Shown here piece by piece: positions 8,458 through 62,775 of a DNA stretch of 64,000 nucleotides; position 1 is the first letter of the stretch; the number at the start of each line of letters is the position of its first letter. The notes under the pieces were generated by a model, which saw nothing but the letters and a program-made list of their open reading frames with translations, searched no databases and was not told where the DNA came from. A program made the position numbers and the translations under genes. The stretch lies in NCBI RefSeq assembly GCF_001677475.2, contig NZ_CP015229.1; one strand, given 5' to 3'. The DNA comes from Escherichia coli (GTDB lineage Bacteria > Pseudomonadota > Gammaproteobacteria > Enterobacterales > Enterobacteriaceae).

Positions 8458-8631
8458 GACAAATGAAATTTTAGTAAACTCTTTAAAATCAATGGGTAAA
8501 ATAATTAACATCAAAAATAACGCGACTTTTATCACTTTTTAGTAAAGTTGCACTGGACAAAGCGTACCACAATTGGTGTACTGGTAACCGACACAGCATT
8601 TGTGTCTATTTTTCATGTAAAGGTAATTTTG

Positions 8632-8841
8632 ATGTCTAAGATTAAAGGTAACGTTAAGTGGTTTAATGAGTCCAAAGGATTCGGTTTCATTACTCCGGAA
8701 GACGGCAGCAAAGACGTGTTCGTACACTTCTCTGCAATCCAGACTAATGGTTTTAAAACTCTTGCTGAAGGTCAGCGCGTAGAGTTCGAAATCACTAACG
8801 GTGCCAAAGGCCCTTCTGCTGCAAACGTAATCGCTCTGTAA
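8632..8841 (+). CDS. cspE: cold-shock-domain protein CspE
   Basis: 69-aa ORF from ATG 8632: [33 protein letters not shown]... (RNP1/RNP2 motifs). Confidence 0.95.
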
Positions 8842-8860
8842 GATACGTCAGCAAGAATTC

Positions 8861-8890
8861 AAAACCCGCTTAATCAGCGGGTTTTTTTTG
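8861..8890. terminator. Rho-independent terminator between convergent cspE and crcB
   Basis: Hairpin cccgct/agcggg (8865..8881) followed by a T8 run; A-run on the other side. Confidence 0.7.
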
Positions 8891-39457: not shown

Positions 39458-39620
39458 AGAAAAAAGAGGGTAGCAGCGTTAACTGCTACCCTCGAAGATT
39501 GTTACCCAGCGTATTGCGGTTTTCAGGCCCGATGGGGAACGACCATCAGGCGTATAGTCTGTCCGTGCTACGTAACAATCGAGAGGGCTGGAATTTCCGC
39601 CCCTGGTTCTTGTAATTAGT
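39458..39620 (-). ncRNA. sroC: SroC-like sRNA in the gltI-gltJ spacer (GcvB sponge in E. coli)
   Basis: 169-bp spacer; minus-strand hairpin gagggtagcag/ctgctaccctc (39466..39493) followed by a U-run ending about 12 nt before the gltJ start; ends set from position in spacer and recalled ~163-nt length. Confidence 0.55.
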
Positions 39621-40524
39621 TCAGTGCCTTGTCATTCGGTTCTTTGAACAGAGCTTTCATTTCGTCTGACAGTTCGAAATTCATGTTCAGGTTTTTCGGC
39701 GGAATTGGATTTTTGAACCACTTATCAAACCATTTTTCCGCTTCGCCGGAGGTCTGCACCTGCGCGATGGTGTCATCCATCAGCTTTTTGAACTGCGGAT
39801 CATCTTTACGCAACATACAACCGTAGGCTTCCTGAGACTGCGGCTTGCCGACGATTTCCCAGTTGTCTGGTTTCTTCGCTTTCGCACGTTCACCGGCCAG
39901 CAGAGCGTCATCCATCATAAAGGCAACGGCACGACCGCTTTCCAGGGTGCGGAAAGAGTCACCGTGATCTTTGGCGCTGATGATGCGCATATTCATTTTT
40001 TGCTCTTCATTCAATTTGTTGAGCAAAACTTCAGAGGTAGTGCCGGAAGTGACGACTACGGCTTTGCCTTTCAGGTCGGCAAAATCTTTGATATCGCCGC
40101 CCTTTTTAGTCAGAAGGCGCGTACCGACCACGAAAATAGTGTCAGAGAAAGCCGCCTGTTTCTGGCGTTCGACGTTATTGGTGGTAGAACCACATTCAAA
40201 ATCGAAAGTGCCGTTTTGCAGCAGAGGAATACGGTTTTGTGAGGTGATCGGAATCAGTTTCACCTGCAAGTCCGGTTTGTTGAGTTTCTTTTTCACTGCT
40301 TCAACAATGGCGTTGGAGTAATCCTGCGAGTAACCCACCACTTTTTGCTGATTGTCGTAATAAGAGAAAGGTACTGAAGATTCACGGTGACCGACGACAA
40401 TCACACCGTTTTTGGCGATTTTGTCCAGCGTACTGCCCGCTGCCGGGGCGGCGTCATCTGCCTGTGCCAGTCCTGCGGAAAGCGCCAGGGCCAGGATTGC
40501 TGTGGCAGGTTTACGTAATTGCAT
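39616..40524 (-). CDS. gltI: glutamate/aspartate periplasmic binding protein
   Basis: ORF 39616..40599; start at ATG 40522..40524 with AAGGAG upstream gives 302 aa MQLRKPATAILALALSAGLAQADDAAP... Confidence 0.9.
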   Translation of the reverse strand: MQLRKPATAILALALSAGLAQADDAAPAAGSTLDKIAKNGVIVVGHRESSVPFSYYDNQQKVVGYSQDYSNAIVEAVKKKLNKPDLQVKLIPITSQNRIPLLQNGTFDFECGSTTNNVERQKQAAFSDTIFVVGTRLLTKKGGDIKDFADLKGKAVVVTSGTTSEVLLNKLNEEQKMNMRIISAKDHGDSFRTLESGRAVAFMMDDALLAGERAKAKKPDNWEIVGKPQSQEAYGCMLRKDDPQFKKLMDDTIAQVQTSGEAEKWFDKWFKNPIPPKNLNMNFELSDEMKALFKEPNDKALN

Positions 40525-40842
40525 ATCCAACTCCTTTATCTTCTGCGTTAAGAACGCATGGATACCTGTTGTGAGTGTTTGTGTTGTTATCATCTGCAAC
40601 TTTATTGTGCAGTGTTGTGCCTGTTAGGTAACATTTAGTTTGGCTAAATGTAAAGATATTGCTGTTTTATTGTTTGTTTTTGCGAGTTGCGCCGCACCAT
40701 TCCGAAGCAAAATTCTTAAAATGCACTCTTTTGGTGCTACCCGTGGATTGCTGTGGTGCAACCGGGTTGTACTGATGCTGGTTCACGCTTTGCCTTGTAT
40801 AACAAAGCAATAGATGTGCCAAAGTTGGATAGGGGAATTTTG

Positions 40843-40880
40843 TTATCCGGATAACGCACTGATGCCGCATCCGGTGAGCG
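40843..40880. repeat. REP-like palindromic element in the lnt-gltI spacer
   Basis: gttatccggataacgcactgatgccgcatccggtgagcg; GCCGGATGCGGCG-type palindrome. Confidence 0.5.
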
Positions 40881-40920
40881 TGCCGAAATACGGGATGTAT
40901 TCCGGCACGATAAGAAGGGA

Positions 40921-42459
40921 TTATTTACGTCGTTGACGCAGACTCATCAGCACAGCAGCAAAACCAAACAGCGCCGTAAGCACCCACAGCGGCCAGTTGC
41001 CGGTACGTGCGTACGGTGTGAGTCCGGTGGTCGGCGTCACGTTAGTGGTTAACACCTCGCGGGTGAACTGCGGGATCATCGCCTGAATCTCACCCTGCGG
41101 ACCAATCACCGCCGTAATGCCGTTGTTGGTGCTACGCAGCAGTGGGCGCGCCAGCTCCAGCGCACGCATTCGCGCCATCTGGAAGTGTTGCCATGGACCA
41201 ATAGATTTACCAAACCACGCATCGTTGGAGATAGTCAGCAGGTAGTCGGTATCCGGGCGGAAGTTATCACGCACTTGCTCGCCGAGAATGATCTCGTAGC
41301 AAATAGCCGCAGTAAGCTCAATACCGTTTACCGACAGCGGCGGCTGGATATATGGCCCACGGCTGAACGACGACATCGGTAGATCAAAGAACGGTGCTAA
41401 CGGACGCAGAATCGACTCCAGCGGGACAAACTCGCCAAACGGCACCAGATGGTTTTTGTTATAGCGATCGGCTGATTCGTAGCTGTACGGCGCACCTTTA
41501 CCCAGCGTGATGATGGTGTTGTAGGTATCGTAGCGGTTCTGCTTATTGAGACGTGCGTCAACAATCCCGGTTACCAGCGAGCTACCTTTATCGCGCAACT
41601 CACCGTCCAGTGCTTTGAGGAACGGTTGCTGATTAATTTCCAGATCGGTTATCGCCGACTCCGGCCAGATAATCAACGATGATTTGCCCATCAGCGGTGC
41701 CGTTGCGTTGTAGTAAATCTTCAGCGTATTAAGAAGCTGGTCTCCGTCCCATTTCAGTGATTGCGGAATATCGCCCTGAACCATCGAAACCTGAATGGTT
41801 TTCTCCGGTTGCGGGGTAAACCACTGGATGTAACGCAGCGGGAAGGGAAGGGCGAACAGCACGACGGCCACCACCATCGGACGCCAGTTGCGTTTGACCA
41901 ACGCCAGTGCCAGCAGGCCGCTAACCATCATTAGCAGGAAGTTAATGGCTTCCACGCCCATTATCGGTGCCAGCCCTTTTAACGGGCCATCAATCTGGCT
42001 ATAGCCGAACTGTAACCACGGGAAACCAGTCAGCACCCAACCGCGCAGAAACTCGGTCACTTGCCAGAGAGCAGGGGCGGCAATCGCCACGCGCAGCCAG
42101 GTGGTTTTCGGCCACAGACGCGACAGCACGCCAGCAAACAGTCCGGTATACAGCGACAAATACGCCGCCAGCAGCACCACCAGGAAGATGTTAACCGGGC
42201 CAGGCATTCCGCCAAAGGTCGCGATGCTGACATAGACCCAGTTAATACCGCTGCCAAAGAGGCCAAATCCCCAGCAAAAGCCAATAGCGGCAGACTGGAG
42301 TGGACGGCGGTTAAAGGTCAGCGCCTGAAGCCCCATCAGCGAAATAATCGCCGCAGGCCAGACGTCGTAAGGAGAGAAGGCCAGCGTTCCGCAGGCACCG
42401 AATAATAACGCCAGCAGCAGGCGAATGCGCTGGCGTTCAATTAATGAGGCAAAAGCCAT
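40921..42459 (-). CDS. lnt: apolipoprotein N-acyltransferase
   Basis: 512-aa [31 protein letters not shown]... with C-terminal CN-hydrolase domain. Confidence 0.95.
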
Positions 42460-45108: not shown

Positions 45109-46533
45109 TTACGGCTGATAATAACCCACGCCAAGGTCGTTTTCTTTGCGGGTACGGGCAATGACTGATTCCGGTGTTTCTGCCACGCGCAGACCCATTT
45201 CATCTTCAGTTCGCACCACTTTACCGCGCAGAGAGTTCGGGTAGACGTCGGTAATTTCTACATCGACGAATTTACCGATCATATCCGGTGTGCCCTCGAA
45301 GTTGACCACGCGGTTATTTTCAGTGCGACCGGAAAGCTCCATGATGCTCTTACGCGATGTACCTTCTACCAGAATACGCTGGGTGGTGCCGAGCATCCGG
45401 CGGCTCCATGCCATCGCTTGCTGATTAATACGTTCTTGTAGAATATACAGACGCTGCTTCTTCTCTTCTTCCGGAACATCATCAACCATGTCGGCGGCTG
45501 GTGTACCCGGACGTGCAGAGAAGATAAAGCTGTAGCTCATGTCGAAATTGACGTCGGCAATCAGCTTCATCGTTTTCTCGAAGTCTTCGGTGGTTTCGCC
45601 AGGGAAGCCGACGATGAAGTCAGAACTGATCTGAATATCCGGACGCGCCGCACGCAGTTTACGGATGATCGCTTTGTACTCCAGCGCCGTGTGGGTACGC
45701 CCCATCAGGTTCAGAATGCGATCGGAACCGCTCTGTACCGGCAGGTGCAGGAAACTCACTAGCTCCGGCGTGTCGCGGTACACTTCGATGATATCGTCGG
45801 TGAATTCGATCGGATGGCTGGTGGTAAAGCGAATACGATCGATCCCGTCGATCGCAGCAACCAGACGCAGCAGATCGGCAAACGATCCGGTGGTGCCGTC
45901 GTAGTTTTCACCACGCCAGGCGTTCACGTTCTGACCGAGCAGGTTGACTTCACGCACGCCCTGAGCCGCAAGCTGGGCGATCTCAAACAGAATATCGTCG
46001 GACGGACGGCTTACCTCTTCACCACGGGTGTAAGGCACTACGCAGTAGGTGCAATATTTATTGCAGCCTTCCATGATGGAGACAAACGCGGTCGGCCCTT
46101 CGGCACGTGGTTCCGGCAGACGGTCAAACTTCTCGATTTCCGGGAAGCTGATATCTACAACCGGGCTGCGGTCGCCGCGCACGGAGTTGATCATCTCCGG
46201 CAGACGGTGCAGCGTTTGCGGCCCAAAAATAATATCGACATAGTGGGCGCGCTGGCGAATGTGCTCGCCTTCTTGCGATGCCACGCAGCCGCCGACGCCG
46301 ATAATCAGGTCTGGATTCTTCTCTTTTAACAGTTTCCAGCGACCCAACTGATGGAAGACTTTTTCCTGAGCCTTCTCGCGGATTGAGCAGGTGTTCAGCA
46401 GCAGCACATCCGCTTCTTCCGCCACGTCGGTCAGTTGATAGCCGTGGGTGGCATCCAGCAGATCGGCCATCTTCGATGAATCGTACTCGTTCATCTGACA
46501 GCCCCAGGTTTTAATATGGAGTTTTTTGGTCAT
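45109..46533 (-). CDS. miaB: tRNA-i6A37 methylthiotransferase
   Basis: 474-aa [29 protein letters not shown]... with radical-SAM CNKYCTYC. Confidence 0.95.
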
Positions 46534-48007: not shown

Positions 48008-48082
48008 TGGCTGGGGTACGAGGATTCGAACCTCGGAATGCCGGAATCAGAATCCGGTGCCTTACCGCTTGGCGATACCCCA
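48008..48082 (-). tRNA. glnX: tRNA-Gln (anticodon CUG)
   Basis: 75-nt minus-strand sequence UGGGGUAUCGCCAAGCGGUAAGGCACCGGAUUCUGAUUCCGG...CCA; anticodon loop UUCUGAU. Confidence 0.9.
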
Positions 48083-48119
48083 ACTGGGTGCACTTACGAT
48101 GTAAGCGTCTTGAATAAAT

Positions 48120-48194
48120 TGGCTGGGGTACGAGGATTCGAACCTCGGAATGCCGGAATCAGAATCCGGTGCCTTACCGCTTGGCGATACCCCA
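48120..48194 (-). tRNA. glnV: tRNA-Gln (anticodon CUG), tandem copy
   Basis: Identical 75-nt sequence to 48008..48082. Confidence 0.9.
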
Positions 48195-48242
48195 ACAAAT
48201 TGGTTTGTGAATTTGCCGAACTTATTCGACACATTCAGAATT

Positions 48243-48319
48243 TGGTGGCTACGACGGGATTCGAACCTGTGACCCCATCATTATGAGTGATGTGCTCTAA
48301 CCAACTGAGCTACGTAGCC
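48243..48319 (-). tRNA. metU: elongator tRNA-Met (anticodon CAU)
   Basis: 77 nt GGCUACGUAGCUCAGUUGGUUAGAGCACAUCACUCAUAAUGAUGGGGUCACAGGUUCGAAUCCCGUCGUAGCCACCA. Confidence 0.9.
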
Positions 48320-48334
48320 AGATTGTTTCTTCGA

Positions 48335-48409
48335 TGGCTGGGGTACCTGGATTCGAACCAGGGAATGCCGGTATCAAAAACCGGTGCCTTACCGCTTGGC
48401 GATACCCCA
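48335..48409 (-). tRNA. glnW: tRNA-Gln (anticodon UUG)
   Basis: 75 nt; anticodon loop UUUUGAU. Confidence 0.9.
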
Positions 48410-48443
48410 ATAACCGGGCGGTGAACCGCTTACTCGAAGAAGA

Positions 48444-48518
48444 TGGCTGGGGTACCTGGATTCGAACCAGGGAATGCCGGTATCAAAAACCGGTGCCTTA
48501 CCGCTTGGCGATACCCCA
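48444..48518 (-). tRNA. glnU: tRNA-Gln (anticodon UUG), tandem copy
   Basis: Identical 75-nt sequence to 48335..48409. Confidence 0.9.
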
Positions 48519-48541
48519 TCCGTACAACGCTTTCTGGTGAA

Positions 48542-48626
48542 TGGTGCGGGAGGCGAGACTTGAACTCGCACACCTTGCGGCGCCAGAACCTAAATCTGGT
48601 GCGTCTACCAATTTCGCCACTCCCGC
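48542..48626 (-). tRNA. leuW: tRNA-Leu (anticodon UAG)
   Basis: 85 nt GCGGGAGUGGCGAAAUUGGUAGACGCACCAGAUUUAGGUUCUGG... with long variable arm. Confidence 0.9.
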
Positions 48627-48634
48627 AAAAAAGA

Positions 48635-48711
48635 TGGTGGCTACGACGGGATTCGAACCTGTGACCCCATCATTATGAGTGATGTGCTCTAACCAACTGA
48701 GCTACGTAGCC
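48635..48711 (-). tRNA. metT: elongator tRNA-Met (anticodon CAU), second copy
   Basis: Identical 77-nt sequence to 48243..48319. Confidence 0.9.
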
Positions 48712-61509: not shown

Positions 61510-61956
61510 TTATTTGCCTTCGTGCGCGTGCTCATCTTCGCGGCAATCGCCTTCGGCACAGTGACCGTAAAGATAGAGACTGTGGTTAGTCAGGCGAATG
61601 CCATGTTTTGCGGCAATTTCACGCTGACGCGCTTCGATGGAATCATCACTAAATTCGATTACCTTGCCGCAGTCGAGGCAGATCAGGTGATCGTGGTGAT
61701 GTTGCTGTGTCAGTTCAAATACGGATTTACCGCCTTCAAAATTGTGGCGGGTGACGATACCAGCGTCGTCAAACTGGTTCAGTACGCGATATACCGTAGC
61801 CAGACCAATTTCTTCACCCATATCGATCAGACGTTTGTATAAATCTTCCGCACTGACGTGATGGTTGTCCGGCTCCTGAAGAACTTCCAGGATTTTCAAG
61901 CGAGGAAGCGTTACTTTCAGGCCAGCTTTCTTTAGGGCGGTATTGTTATCAGTCAT
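61510..61956 (-). CDS. fur: ferric uptake regulator
   Basis: 148-aa ORF MTDNNTALKKAGLKVTLPRLKILEVLQEPDNHHVSAEDLYKRL... Confidence 0.95.
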   Translation of the reverse strand: MTDNNTALKKAGLKVTLPRLKILEVLQEPDNHHVSAEDLYKRLIDMGEEIGLATVYRVLNQFDDAGIVTRHNFEGGKSVFELTQQHHHDHLICLDCGKVIEFSDDSIEARQREIAAKHGIRLTNHSLYLYGHCAEGDCREDEHAHEGK

Positions 61957-62035
61957 GCGGAATCTGTCCTGTTACTAAGCGGTTCACTTCATTAGAAGAA
62001 GTGACAGAATTTGCTCTTGAGATAATGCGTATCAT
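61949..62035 (-). CDS. uof: uof, 28-codon upstream ORF translationally coupled to fur
   Basis: MIRIISRANSVTSSNEVNRLVTGQIPHD; its stop (61949..61951) overlaps the fur start region (ATGACTGA). Confidence 0.65.
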   Translation of the reverse strand: MIRIISRANSVTSSNEVNRLVTGQIPHD

Positions 62036-62038
62036 TAT
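62018..62038. promoter_or_regulatory. Fur-box-like palindrome in the fur/uof leader
   Basis: gagataatgcgtatcattata resembles the GATAATGATAATCATTATC consensus; it overlaps the uof start codon. Confidence 0.5.
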
Positions 62039-62244
62039 AGAATTGCCACGCCTAAATGAAAACCACAAGTCCCTGGCAAATATTGTTAATAAAAACGTGG
62101 CACAGCTTACATTTACAACGGCAAGGCCACTTGAACACCGGGACATTGTACAGGTACAACAGCAAAAGTTACAAATTTGTAGCAATTATTTTGATTGGCA
62201 TTATCTATTAATACGGCGTAGACATGAGTCTACGCCGCATCACA

Positions 62245-62775
62245 TCAGGCATTGAGAATTTCGTCGAGATGCAGCTCTTCAGAAATTTGTTTAACCCATT
62301 TTTCTACACGTTCAGCGGTCAGTTCCGGCTGACGATCTTCGTCGATAGCCAGACCGACAAAGTGGTCATCATCAGCCAGACCTTTTGACGCTTCGAAGTG
62401 GTAGCCCGCGGTTGGCCAGTGACCAACGATGGTTGCACCGCGCGGTTCAATGATGTCGCGGATGGTGCCCAATGCATCGCAGAAGTATTCTGCGTAATCT
62501 TCCTGGTCGCCACAACCAAACAGCGCAACCAGTTTGCCATTGAAATCAATCTCTTCGAGAGTCGGGAAGAAGTCATCCCAGTCACACTGCGCTTCGCCGT
62601 AATACCAGGTTGGGATGCCCAGCAGCAGAATGTCATATGCTTCCAGATCTTCTTTGCTGCTTTTTGCAATGTCATGGACATCGGCAACGTCTTTACCAAG
62701 CTGTTTTTGAATCATTTTTGCGATATTTTCGGTATTACCGGTGTCGCTGCCGAAAAAGATGCCAGTGATAGCCAT
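62245..62775 (-). CDS. fldA: flavodoxin 1
   Basis: ORF 62245..62892; start at internal Met gives 176 aa [27 protein letters not shown]... (FMN-binding T/SxTGxT). Confidence 0.95.

Follow-up and report, generated by a model that had tools for sequence, protein, structure and literature searches.

The control region of fur in the window, that is, in the whole 64-kb stretch of DNA analysed here, is very probably the E. coli fur control region as it has already been described, and in it the Fur operator, the −10 hexamer, the main transcription start site and the start codon of the leader ORF uof share one 19-bp stretch; therefore, the main fur mRNA cannot use uof. In enteric bacteria, Fur acts as the master regulator of iron, and several layers of control bear on its own synthesis. 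The overlap of uof with fur, the Fur operator and the inference on the start sites are all already annotated or published; the interpretation of how uof evolved, the covarying hairpin of the fur leader and the abundant 3′ end of an RNA at the fur AUG (61955) might be new. The hairpin is more widely conserved than uof itself, and caution is warranted in extending the RyhB/uof/MiaB model past E. coli, for example, to Salmonella or Klebsiella, in which the ORF is broken. The anatomy of the locus, its identity to K-12, the two promoters, the placement of the start sites with respect to the uof AUG and the comparative pattern come from the present analysis; Fur footprinting, translational coupling and the effects of RyhB and MiaB are taken from the literature.

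The gene neighbourhood within the window, chiP-chiQ-fur-uof-fldA-ybfE, is that of the E. coli chromosome. The fur CDS (148 aa; 61510..61956) was taken from the list of open reading frames and corresponds to MG1655 b0683, with 80 orthologous loci at 90-100% identity; it lies on the minus strand, as do the uof ORF and the promoters, transcript ends, Fur box and RNA elements discussed below. The sequence-only reading had claimed that a 28-codon ORF, recognized as E. coli uof, ends over the fur start, and both points are borne out. Read in the sense direction (62035..61949), the ORF runs ATG ATA CGC ATT ATC TCA ... CCG CAT GAC TGA, that is, 28 codons plus TGA with the translation MIRIISRANSVTSSNEVNRLVTGQIPHD, and its stop codon (61951..61949) and the fur ATG (61956..61954) both fall within the overlap ATGACTGA (61949..61956), as seen by direct reading. 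Furthermore, uof and the fldA-fur spacer are 100% identical to those of MG1655, where the same ORF is annotated as uof (b4637), "RyhB-regulated fur leader peptide"; the NCBI PGAP label "uof: fur leader peptide" is found among the matches listed. The locus was matched in 5,424 of the 5,426 complete E. coli genomes, with the 141-bp core at least 99% identical in 5,096 of the 5,424, and the 1.5-kb neighbourhood shares at most 99.5% identity with any complete genome. The fur Shine-Dalgarno sequence AGGA (61967..61970, by direct reading) is located 10 nt 5′ of the AUG, within uof codons 22-24, and the surrounding ACAGGAC is near-invariant in an alignment of 24 sequences, Shimwellia (ACAGGAT) being the exception. 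The pair uof-fur thus displays the hallmarks of coupled genes, namely, a stop/start overlap of a few nucleotides and a downstream Shine-Dalgarno sequence (61970..61967) inside the upstream ORF. No convincing Shine-Dalgarno sequence was found by direct reading 5′ of the uof AUG, where GUGG/UAGG alone is present 10-19 nt upstream.

The sequence around the uof ATG had been read as a Fur operator, which was taken to suggest autoregulation. Indeed, the Fur box TATAATGATACGCATTATC (62021..62039) matches the consensus GATAATGATAATCATTATC at 16 of 19 positions and is the only site with three or fewer mismatches in the 64 kb, against 0.02 such sites expected from shuffled sequences, only 2 of 100 of which contained any match. 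For comparison, the best box in the strongly Fur-repressed ryhB promoter, used as a positive control, likewise departs from the consensus at three positions. Reverse complementation of the plus-strand string gagataatgcgtatcattata (62020..62040) gives tataATGatacgcattatctc, within which lies the uof ATG (62035..62033), the very ATG present in the Fur consensus itself (GATA-ATG-AT). The box (62039..62021) spans the −10 hexamer (62039..62034) and the start site at 62026, and lies inside the published DNase I footprint of Fur on the fur promoter (NC_000913.2 709931-709960, corresponding to window positions 62018..62047; PMC2189734 Table 3). Our own test consisted of the mismatch count and the shuffle control, and the weight-matrix score was taken from the published matrix: the strongest score of the fur-promoter site in the information-theory Fur matrix is 12.3 bits (Chen et al. 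2007, PMC2189734). The sequence-only reading had named a below-threshold matrix score as grounds against the operator; this is not the case, given that the published score is positive and the site is footprinted. The site is nevertheless weak to moderate: its score is the second lowest of the 13 footprinted regions listed and falls under the 17-bit cut-off of the genome scan (PMC2189734), which would have missed it. Autoregulation of fur by Fur has itself been published (de Lorenzo 1988, as cited in PMC7867234) and is described as "moderate" (PMC7867234), which fits the low positive matrix score.

A consensus scan of positions 61900..62320 detected exactly two promoter-like sites, both on the minus strand and each just 5′ of a mapped start. 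The proximal one, Pfur (62034..62062), consists of TTTTCA (62062..62057) and TATAAT (62039..62034) separated by 17 nt, with 10 of 12 positions matching; the distal one, Puof (62145..62174), reads TTGTAA-18-TACAAT, with 9 of 12. Published accounts describe Pfur "within the uof ORF" with Puof upstream and two mRNAs, fur and uof-fur (PMC6191717), a ybfE-fldA-uof-fur operon with three promoters (PMC4161252), and promoters for fldA, uof and, twice, fur, with four transcription units (PMC7867234). A comparison with the mapped fur start sites had been proposed together with the claim that uof translation depends on a transcript starting further upstream, and it upholds that claim. The main fur start, an A at 62026 (NC_000913.2 709939; 46 reads, the highest count in the fldA-fur spacer; Kim 2012 Table S1), lies 7 nt 3′ of the −10 hexamer and yields a leader of 70 nt; since it is also 9 nt 3′ of the A of the uof AUG, the transcript from 62026 cannot encode Uof. 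In contrast, the starts at 62138 (710051; 8 reads), 103 nt before the uof AUG, and, less used, at 62169 (710082; 5 reads) produce mRNAs that include uof and are both assigned to uof in the same table, which also contains an extra 5′ end at 61963 (28 reads), just 7 nt before the fur AUG. The Cappable-seq supplement has no rows at this locus. Uof is therefore encodable solely by RNAs from the distal starts (62138, 62169) or by read-through from fldA. The upstream transcript had been placed on "the fldA side", and here the earlier claim needs adjustment: the upstream origin stands, the main source being dedicated starts in the fldA-uof spacer, downstream of the fldA terminator, with fldA read-through coming second.

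The fldA intrinsic terminator (62207..62236), identified by direct reading, is composed of GGCGTAGAC-TCAT-GTCTACGCC followed by the tail GTATTAAT; its hairpin occupies 62236..62215, and the primary Term-seq 3′ end (710897) maps to 62207, with an intrinsic-terminator score of 19.7. A simple terminator scan missed this terminator because its T tract is weak. The other prominent RNA end of the region is located at 61955, at the U of the fur AUG (NC_000913.3 710645, minus strand), where the Term-seq supplement of Adams 2021 gives scores of 137,086 and 180,817 and calls the end not Rho-dependent. As a separate observation, the best match in a scan with the OxyR consensus (14 of 20 positions; 62208..62172) abuts the −35 element of the distal promoter and is tied with two unrelated sites in the window; this putative site next to the distal promoter is only a lead.

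Translation of fur is reported to be coupled to that of uof (Vecerek, Moll & Blasi 2007, as relayed by secondary sources), and the sequence would fit such coupling, with AGGA inside uof and overlapping stop and start codons. According to the same secondary accounts, RyhB represses uof, and hence fur, translation at low iron (Vecerek et al. 2007), and the iron responsiveness of uof/fur arises from a UCA codon that MiaB-modified tRNA-Ser decodes; codon 6 of uof in the window is UCA (TCA), the MiaB-dependent codon of the published model. However, because the mRNA from the most-used start, 62026, lacks the uof AUG, no more than a minority of fur transcripts can be subject to coupling under the sampled conditions. 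The best candidate RyhB pairing site, GAGCAAAUUCUGUCA (62002..62016), would pair with RyhB nt 38-48, including G44/C45. The predicted duplex at 62016..62002 has an energy of −12.3 kcal/mol, and 72% of shuffles are equally good; for sodB, the positive control, the corresponding values are −15.3 kcal/mol and 0 of 40 shuffles, so that pairing of RyhB with the leader, searched in 16-nt windows, is not above shuffles. A weaker duplex (−9.8) is found just 5′ of the uof AUG, at 62049..62039. RNAduplex runs of full-length RyhB against the whole leader or 30-nt windows returned unrealistic, loop-rich duplexes that were no better than shuffles and were dropped. The candidate site at 62002..62016 is common to the short and long transcripts and uses G44/C45, which fits the "same site" and the G44/C45 requirement of PMC6191717. 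That study found that RyhB lowers the short fur mRNA and not the uof-fur mRNA, an effect that fits poorly with the notion that RyhB acts by blocking uof initiation.

Combining these data with the published work, regulation at the locus very probably proceeds as follows. Two sigma-70 promoters between fldA and fur, a proximal one (Pfur) starting at 62026 and a distal one starting at 62138, supply the transcripts. Because the 19-bp box covers Pfur from the −10 to beyond +1, iron-loaded Fur bound to it would block RNA polymerase, giving moderate autoregulation. The Pfur mRNA carries a 70-nt leader devoid of the uof AUG, and the distal promoter (62138, minor 62169), together with read-through of the fldA terminator, provides longer mRNAs with the full 28-codon uof. 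On these, a ribosome translating uof would cross the fur Shine-Dalgarno sequence and terminate at the UGA overlapping the fur AUG, whereupon it may be handed to fur or may have opened weak structure at the fur ribosome binding site. At low iron, RyhB and MiaB-dependent decoding of the UCA codon 6 would lower uof, and hence fur, translation, as secondary sources report from Vecerek et al. 2007. As for the origin of uof, we infer that the Fur-box/−10 core TATAATGA provided the ATG, and fur codons 2-3 (ACT GAY) the overlapping TGA.

The distribution of uof was examined in 80 Enterobacterales fur loci (81 sequences in the ORF counts). Almost all of them retain the −10/Fur-box core TATAATG at about −83, and conservation of the distal promoter Puof extends to nearly all Enterobacteriaceae loci, those with a broken uof included. 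The ORF starting at the ATG of TATAATG, among the 81 sequences, occurs in all three phases. In 37, representing about 14 named genera (Escherichia, most Citrobacter, Enterobacter, Kosakonia, Kluyvera, Phytobacter, Leclercia, Pluralibacter, Pseudescherichia, Siccibacter and others), an ORF of the uof type, 28, 29 or 30 codons long, ends at ATGACTGA. Seven end at an alternative overlapping stop, ATGA (Mangrovibacter, Cedecea, one Buttiauxella), and four read in frame into fur (Buttiauxella, Dryocola and one strain labelled Enterobacter). The rest are truncated, to 16 codons in Salmonella enterica arizonae, 14 in Klebsiella and Raoultella and 13 in Atlantibacter, with truncated ORFs also in Pantoea, Erwinia, Dickeya and others; in loci of the Erwinia/Pantoea type, uof is truncated or re-phased in all but one. 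In addition, uof is reported to be absent in Yersinia enterocolitica (PMC7867234). Lack of uof conservation in related genomes, which the sequence-only reading had named as grounds against its claim, is thus partly borne out: about 14 named genera have an intact ORF, and several others, among them Salmonella arizonae, Klebsiella and Raoultella, have one that is broken or re-phased. The overlap itself, ATGACTGA(C/T), occurs in nearly all of the 80 orthologous loci irrespective of whether they have uof, and the uof stop is therefore dictated by fur codons 2-3. Among 22 unique intact 28-codon orthologues, uof diversity at codon positions 1/2/3 is 0.167/0.126/0.181, that is, not concentrated at third positions, unlike that of fur in the same genomes (0.022/0.013/0.278), and the peptide is therefore under no purifying selection. 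The UCA codon 6 is retained in 11 of the 31 unique intact orthologues and replaced by CCA in Enterobacter, and 16 of the 31 are devoid of any UCA. Where selection acts, in the Escherichia/Citrobacter/Enterobacter group, it would keep the frame open to the fur start rather than preserve the peptide. In our reading, uof would be a lineage-restricted layer made from an ATG and a TGA supplied by other constraints.

An RNA hairpin of the fur leader (61984..62004, read 62004..61984) occupies the variable middle of uof; in it, the arms UCACUUC and GAAGUGA enclose the loop UUCUAAU. It extends from −48 to −28 relative to the fur AUG and covers roughly uof codons 11-18. The arms co-vary in other genera, with the pairs ACUUCC/GGAAGU, CUUCCC/GGGAAG, UUGCUCC/GGAGCGA, CGCUCA/UGAGCG, GCCC/GGGC and GCUUCG/CGGAGC. 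In a covariance-model alignment of 64 Enterobacteriaceae leaders (54 distinct), which was fitted to the structure, 88.9% of cells are paired and both sides change in seven of the eight pairs; compensated cells number 34, compared with 9.1 ± 2.6 in shuffles (none of 500 reached 34), and sliding the partner columns leaves at most 51% paired. Because that alignment was fitted to the structure, we added an alignment-free folding test on the 50 unique 28-mers anchored at the Shine-Dalgarno sequence; every one of them forms a hairpin at this place, with 26 distinct arm pairs and, relative to dinucleotide shuffles, a mean z of −2.95. Taken by itself, the E. coli leader does not reach significance in folding (z = −1.31). 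RNAalifold, applied to 24 leaders aligned with MAFFT, failed to recover the hairpin owing to its variable loop length and returned the invariant pairs of the Shine-Dalgarno region alone (−2.3 kcal/mol); as these pairs show no covariation in the 24 leaders, sequestration of the fur ribosome binding site is not supported. A search of 61900..62300 against Rfam (E ≤ 1) matched no family, and the hairpin is not mentioned in the literature examined, a body that Vecerek 2003 and 2007 lie outside of. A role as a terminator was considered and rejected: the hairpin is followed by AACCGCUUAGUAAC (AACCGC) with no U tract, and the terminator scan was negative. Candidate functions include a determinant of leader stability or translation and a binding platform for a protein or Hfq.

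An RNA extending from the main start at 62026 to the abundant 3′ end at 61955 would be about 72 nt long and would carry both the hairpin and the stretch best complementary to RyhB. One could imagine that the hairpin is the oldest and best-conserved RNA feature of the fur leader, that this leader RNA constitutes an undescribed regulatory element, and that uof is a lineage-restricted add-on on minor long transcripts; we regard this scenario as tentative and rather improbable. Such an element could govern the stability or translation of the short fur mRNA that lacks uof, or, as a leader-derived RNA, could titrate RyhB.

How much of the regulation passes through uof can be weighed on the same evidence. 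At one extreme, uof would be essentially a by-product that contributes little or nothing to regulation in the cell, the elements under selection being the promoter/operator and the leader hairpin, with most Fur made from the short Pfur mRNA through its own AGGA. Much of the comparative pattern points this way: an ATG is inherent to every Fur-box core GATAATGAT and to a −10 hexamer followed by G, and the stop is forced by fur codons 2-3; TATAATG is near-universal in Enterobacterales loci, yet the ORF that follows occurs in all phases (37 at ATGACTGA, seven at ATGA, four into fur, the rest truncated), and ATGACTGA is kept where uof is absent. The lack of codon-position bias in uof, the variable middle of the ORF being a covarying hairpin, the want of a convincing Shine-Dalgarno sequence before its AUG, the main start site lying 3′ of that AUG and the action of RyhB on the short mRNA and not on uof-fur (PMC6191717) are all consistent with it. 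Against this stands the genetics, which, as secondary sources report from Vecerek 2007, makes fur translation dependent on uof translation. Moreover, about 14 named genera have preserved the open frame in spite of heavy divergence and 3-nt indels, a pattern that points to selection for reading through to the fur start, and the distal promoter that supplies the uof mRNA is conserved. We therefore consider it doubtful that uof is inert, and favour the lineage-restricted layer that would act through the open frame.

Two further roles would assign the function to the act or the product of uof translation in other ways, and both were rejected on the codon-position diversity and the negative terminator scan. 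If uof were an attenuation leader peptide of the trpL/thrL type, the position of the ribosome would choose between a terminator and an antiterminator and so control transcription into fur. EcoCyc does group uof with the leader peptides, a conserved hairpin lies within the ORF, and an abundant RNA 3′ end is found at the fur AUG; however, the scan of 61900..62320 revealed no terminator-like site, the hairpin runs into AACCGCUUAGUAAC instead of a U tract, the end at 61955 is 28 nt past the hairpin with an intrinsic-terminator score of 1.1 and is not Rho-dependent, and neither leader folding nor the alignment of 24 leaders disclosed an alternative pairing, which leaves attenuation very improbable. 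A functional small protein acting through its amino-acid sequence is, in our estimate, the least probable of all. Thousands of genomes carry a CDS annotation for the ORF, and its C-terminal part, EVNRL(A/V)TGQIPHD, is well conserved. That part, however, coincides with invariant nucleotides of the fur leader and its ribosome binding site, and loci with a broken ORF conserve these nucleotides equally well; variation is not biased towards third positions (0.167/0.126/0.181), and N-terminal and middle residues are freely replaced, with seven different residues at each of codons 14 and 15.

Compared with known systems, the uof of the window shares nucleotide sequence, position, length of 28 codons and the ATGACTGA overlap with E. 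coli K-12 uof (b4637), without any difference: it is the same element in another E. coli strain. Likewise, the box does not differ from the Fur operator of the fur promoter (footprinted by de Lorenzo et al. 1988 and included in the matrix of Chen et al. 2007), being the same 19-bp site that overlaps the −10 hexamer and +1 inside 62018..62047. The uof-pqsR system of Pseudomonas aeruginosa, controlled by PhrS, resembles fur in that a short uORF coupled to a downstream regulator gene is the point of sRNA action. The two differ in that PhrS activates by opening the ribosome binding site of the uORF, whereas RyhB is reported to repress, and in that the major fur promoter bypasses the start of the uORF. 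Finally, trpL, thrL, ivbL and pheL, with which EcoCyc lists uof, are also short ORFs in the leaders of regulated genes; unlike them, uof has no terminator/antiterminator pair and no U tract, and its published mode of action is translational coupling rather than transcription termination.

Read upstream of uof, the 28-codon leader ORF that overlaps the fur start codon, the same reading frame continues without a stop for 78 codons (open frame with its extension, 61949..62185, minus strand). A second ATG of this frame, at 62146..62144, lies within the -10 element of the distal promoter, TACAATG, and would open a 65-codon ORF on RNA reading through from fldA. The -10+G motifs of both promoters, the distal one and that of fur itself, thus create in-frame ATGs. 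In four loci of the Enterobacterales fur set, those of Buttiauxella izardii (L055), B. agrestis (L056), Dryocola boscaweniae (L058) and 'Enterobacter sp. R1' (L061), the ATG in the Fur box lies about 66-69 nt 5' of the fur ATG (locus position 1501), in frame with fur and with no intervening stop, so that long transcripts of these loci could encode an N-terminally extended Fur with 22-23 additional residues (MRRIHLNAHPESER...).

Published maps place two RNA ends close to the fur AUG, both on the minus strand. Among the Term-seq 3' ends in the supplement to Adams et al. 2021 is a highly abundant one at the U of the AUG itself (61955, corresponding to NC_000913.3 710645), with scores of 137,086 and 180,817, the fldA terminator scoring 47,785; the supplement classes this end as not Rho-dependent, and the main text of that paper does not discuss it. 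Taken together with the main fur start at 62026, the 3' end implies a leader RNA of ~72 nt. The second is a 5' end at 61963 (28 reads; Kim et al. 2012), merely 7 nt 5' of the AUG and 3' of the Shine-Dalgarno sequence, which could be a processing site or could reflect an almost leaderless fur mRNA. Within uof, the fur leader also contains a hairpin (61984..62004, minus strand) that is preserved by compensatory base changes throughout Enterobacteriaceae; no Rfam family matches it, and no mention of it was found within the accessible literature.

The best match to the OxyR consensus in the spacer (62172..62208, minus strand; 14/20) adjoins the -35 element of the distal promoter immediately 3' of the fldA terminator, a score equalled by two unrelated sites in the window. 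An OxyR site was reportedly described by Zheng et al. in 1999, and the match may correspond to it; if so, the uof-carrying transcript would be the OxyR-activated one.

Elsewhere in the window, Rfam matches identify the sroC sRNA (39458..39620, minus strand), the cspE leader of the cspA thermoregulator family (8531..8889, plus strand) and seven tRNA genes (48011..48711, minus strand), which correspond to the K-12 glnX-glnV-metU-glnW-glnU-leuW-metT cluster. The window also carries miaB (45109..46533, minus strand), 16 kb from uof, whose product, identical in protein sequence (100%) to that of K-12, is the Fe-S tRNA methylthiotransferase proposed as the basis of iron-responsive uof decoding. Coordinate offsets relative to MG1655 imply that the window lacks IS5D, which MG1655 carries between gltI and lnt (about 39700..41000), that it is about 1.47 kb longer than K-12 somewhere before sroC, and that its tRNA cluster lies about 270 bp closer to fur. 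No complete E. coli genome (n = 5,424) exceeds 99.5% identity to the 1.5-kb region surrounding fur; despite this, the fldA-fur spacer has the K-12 sequence.
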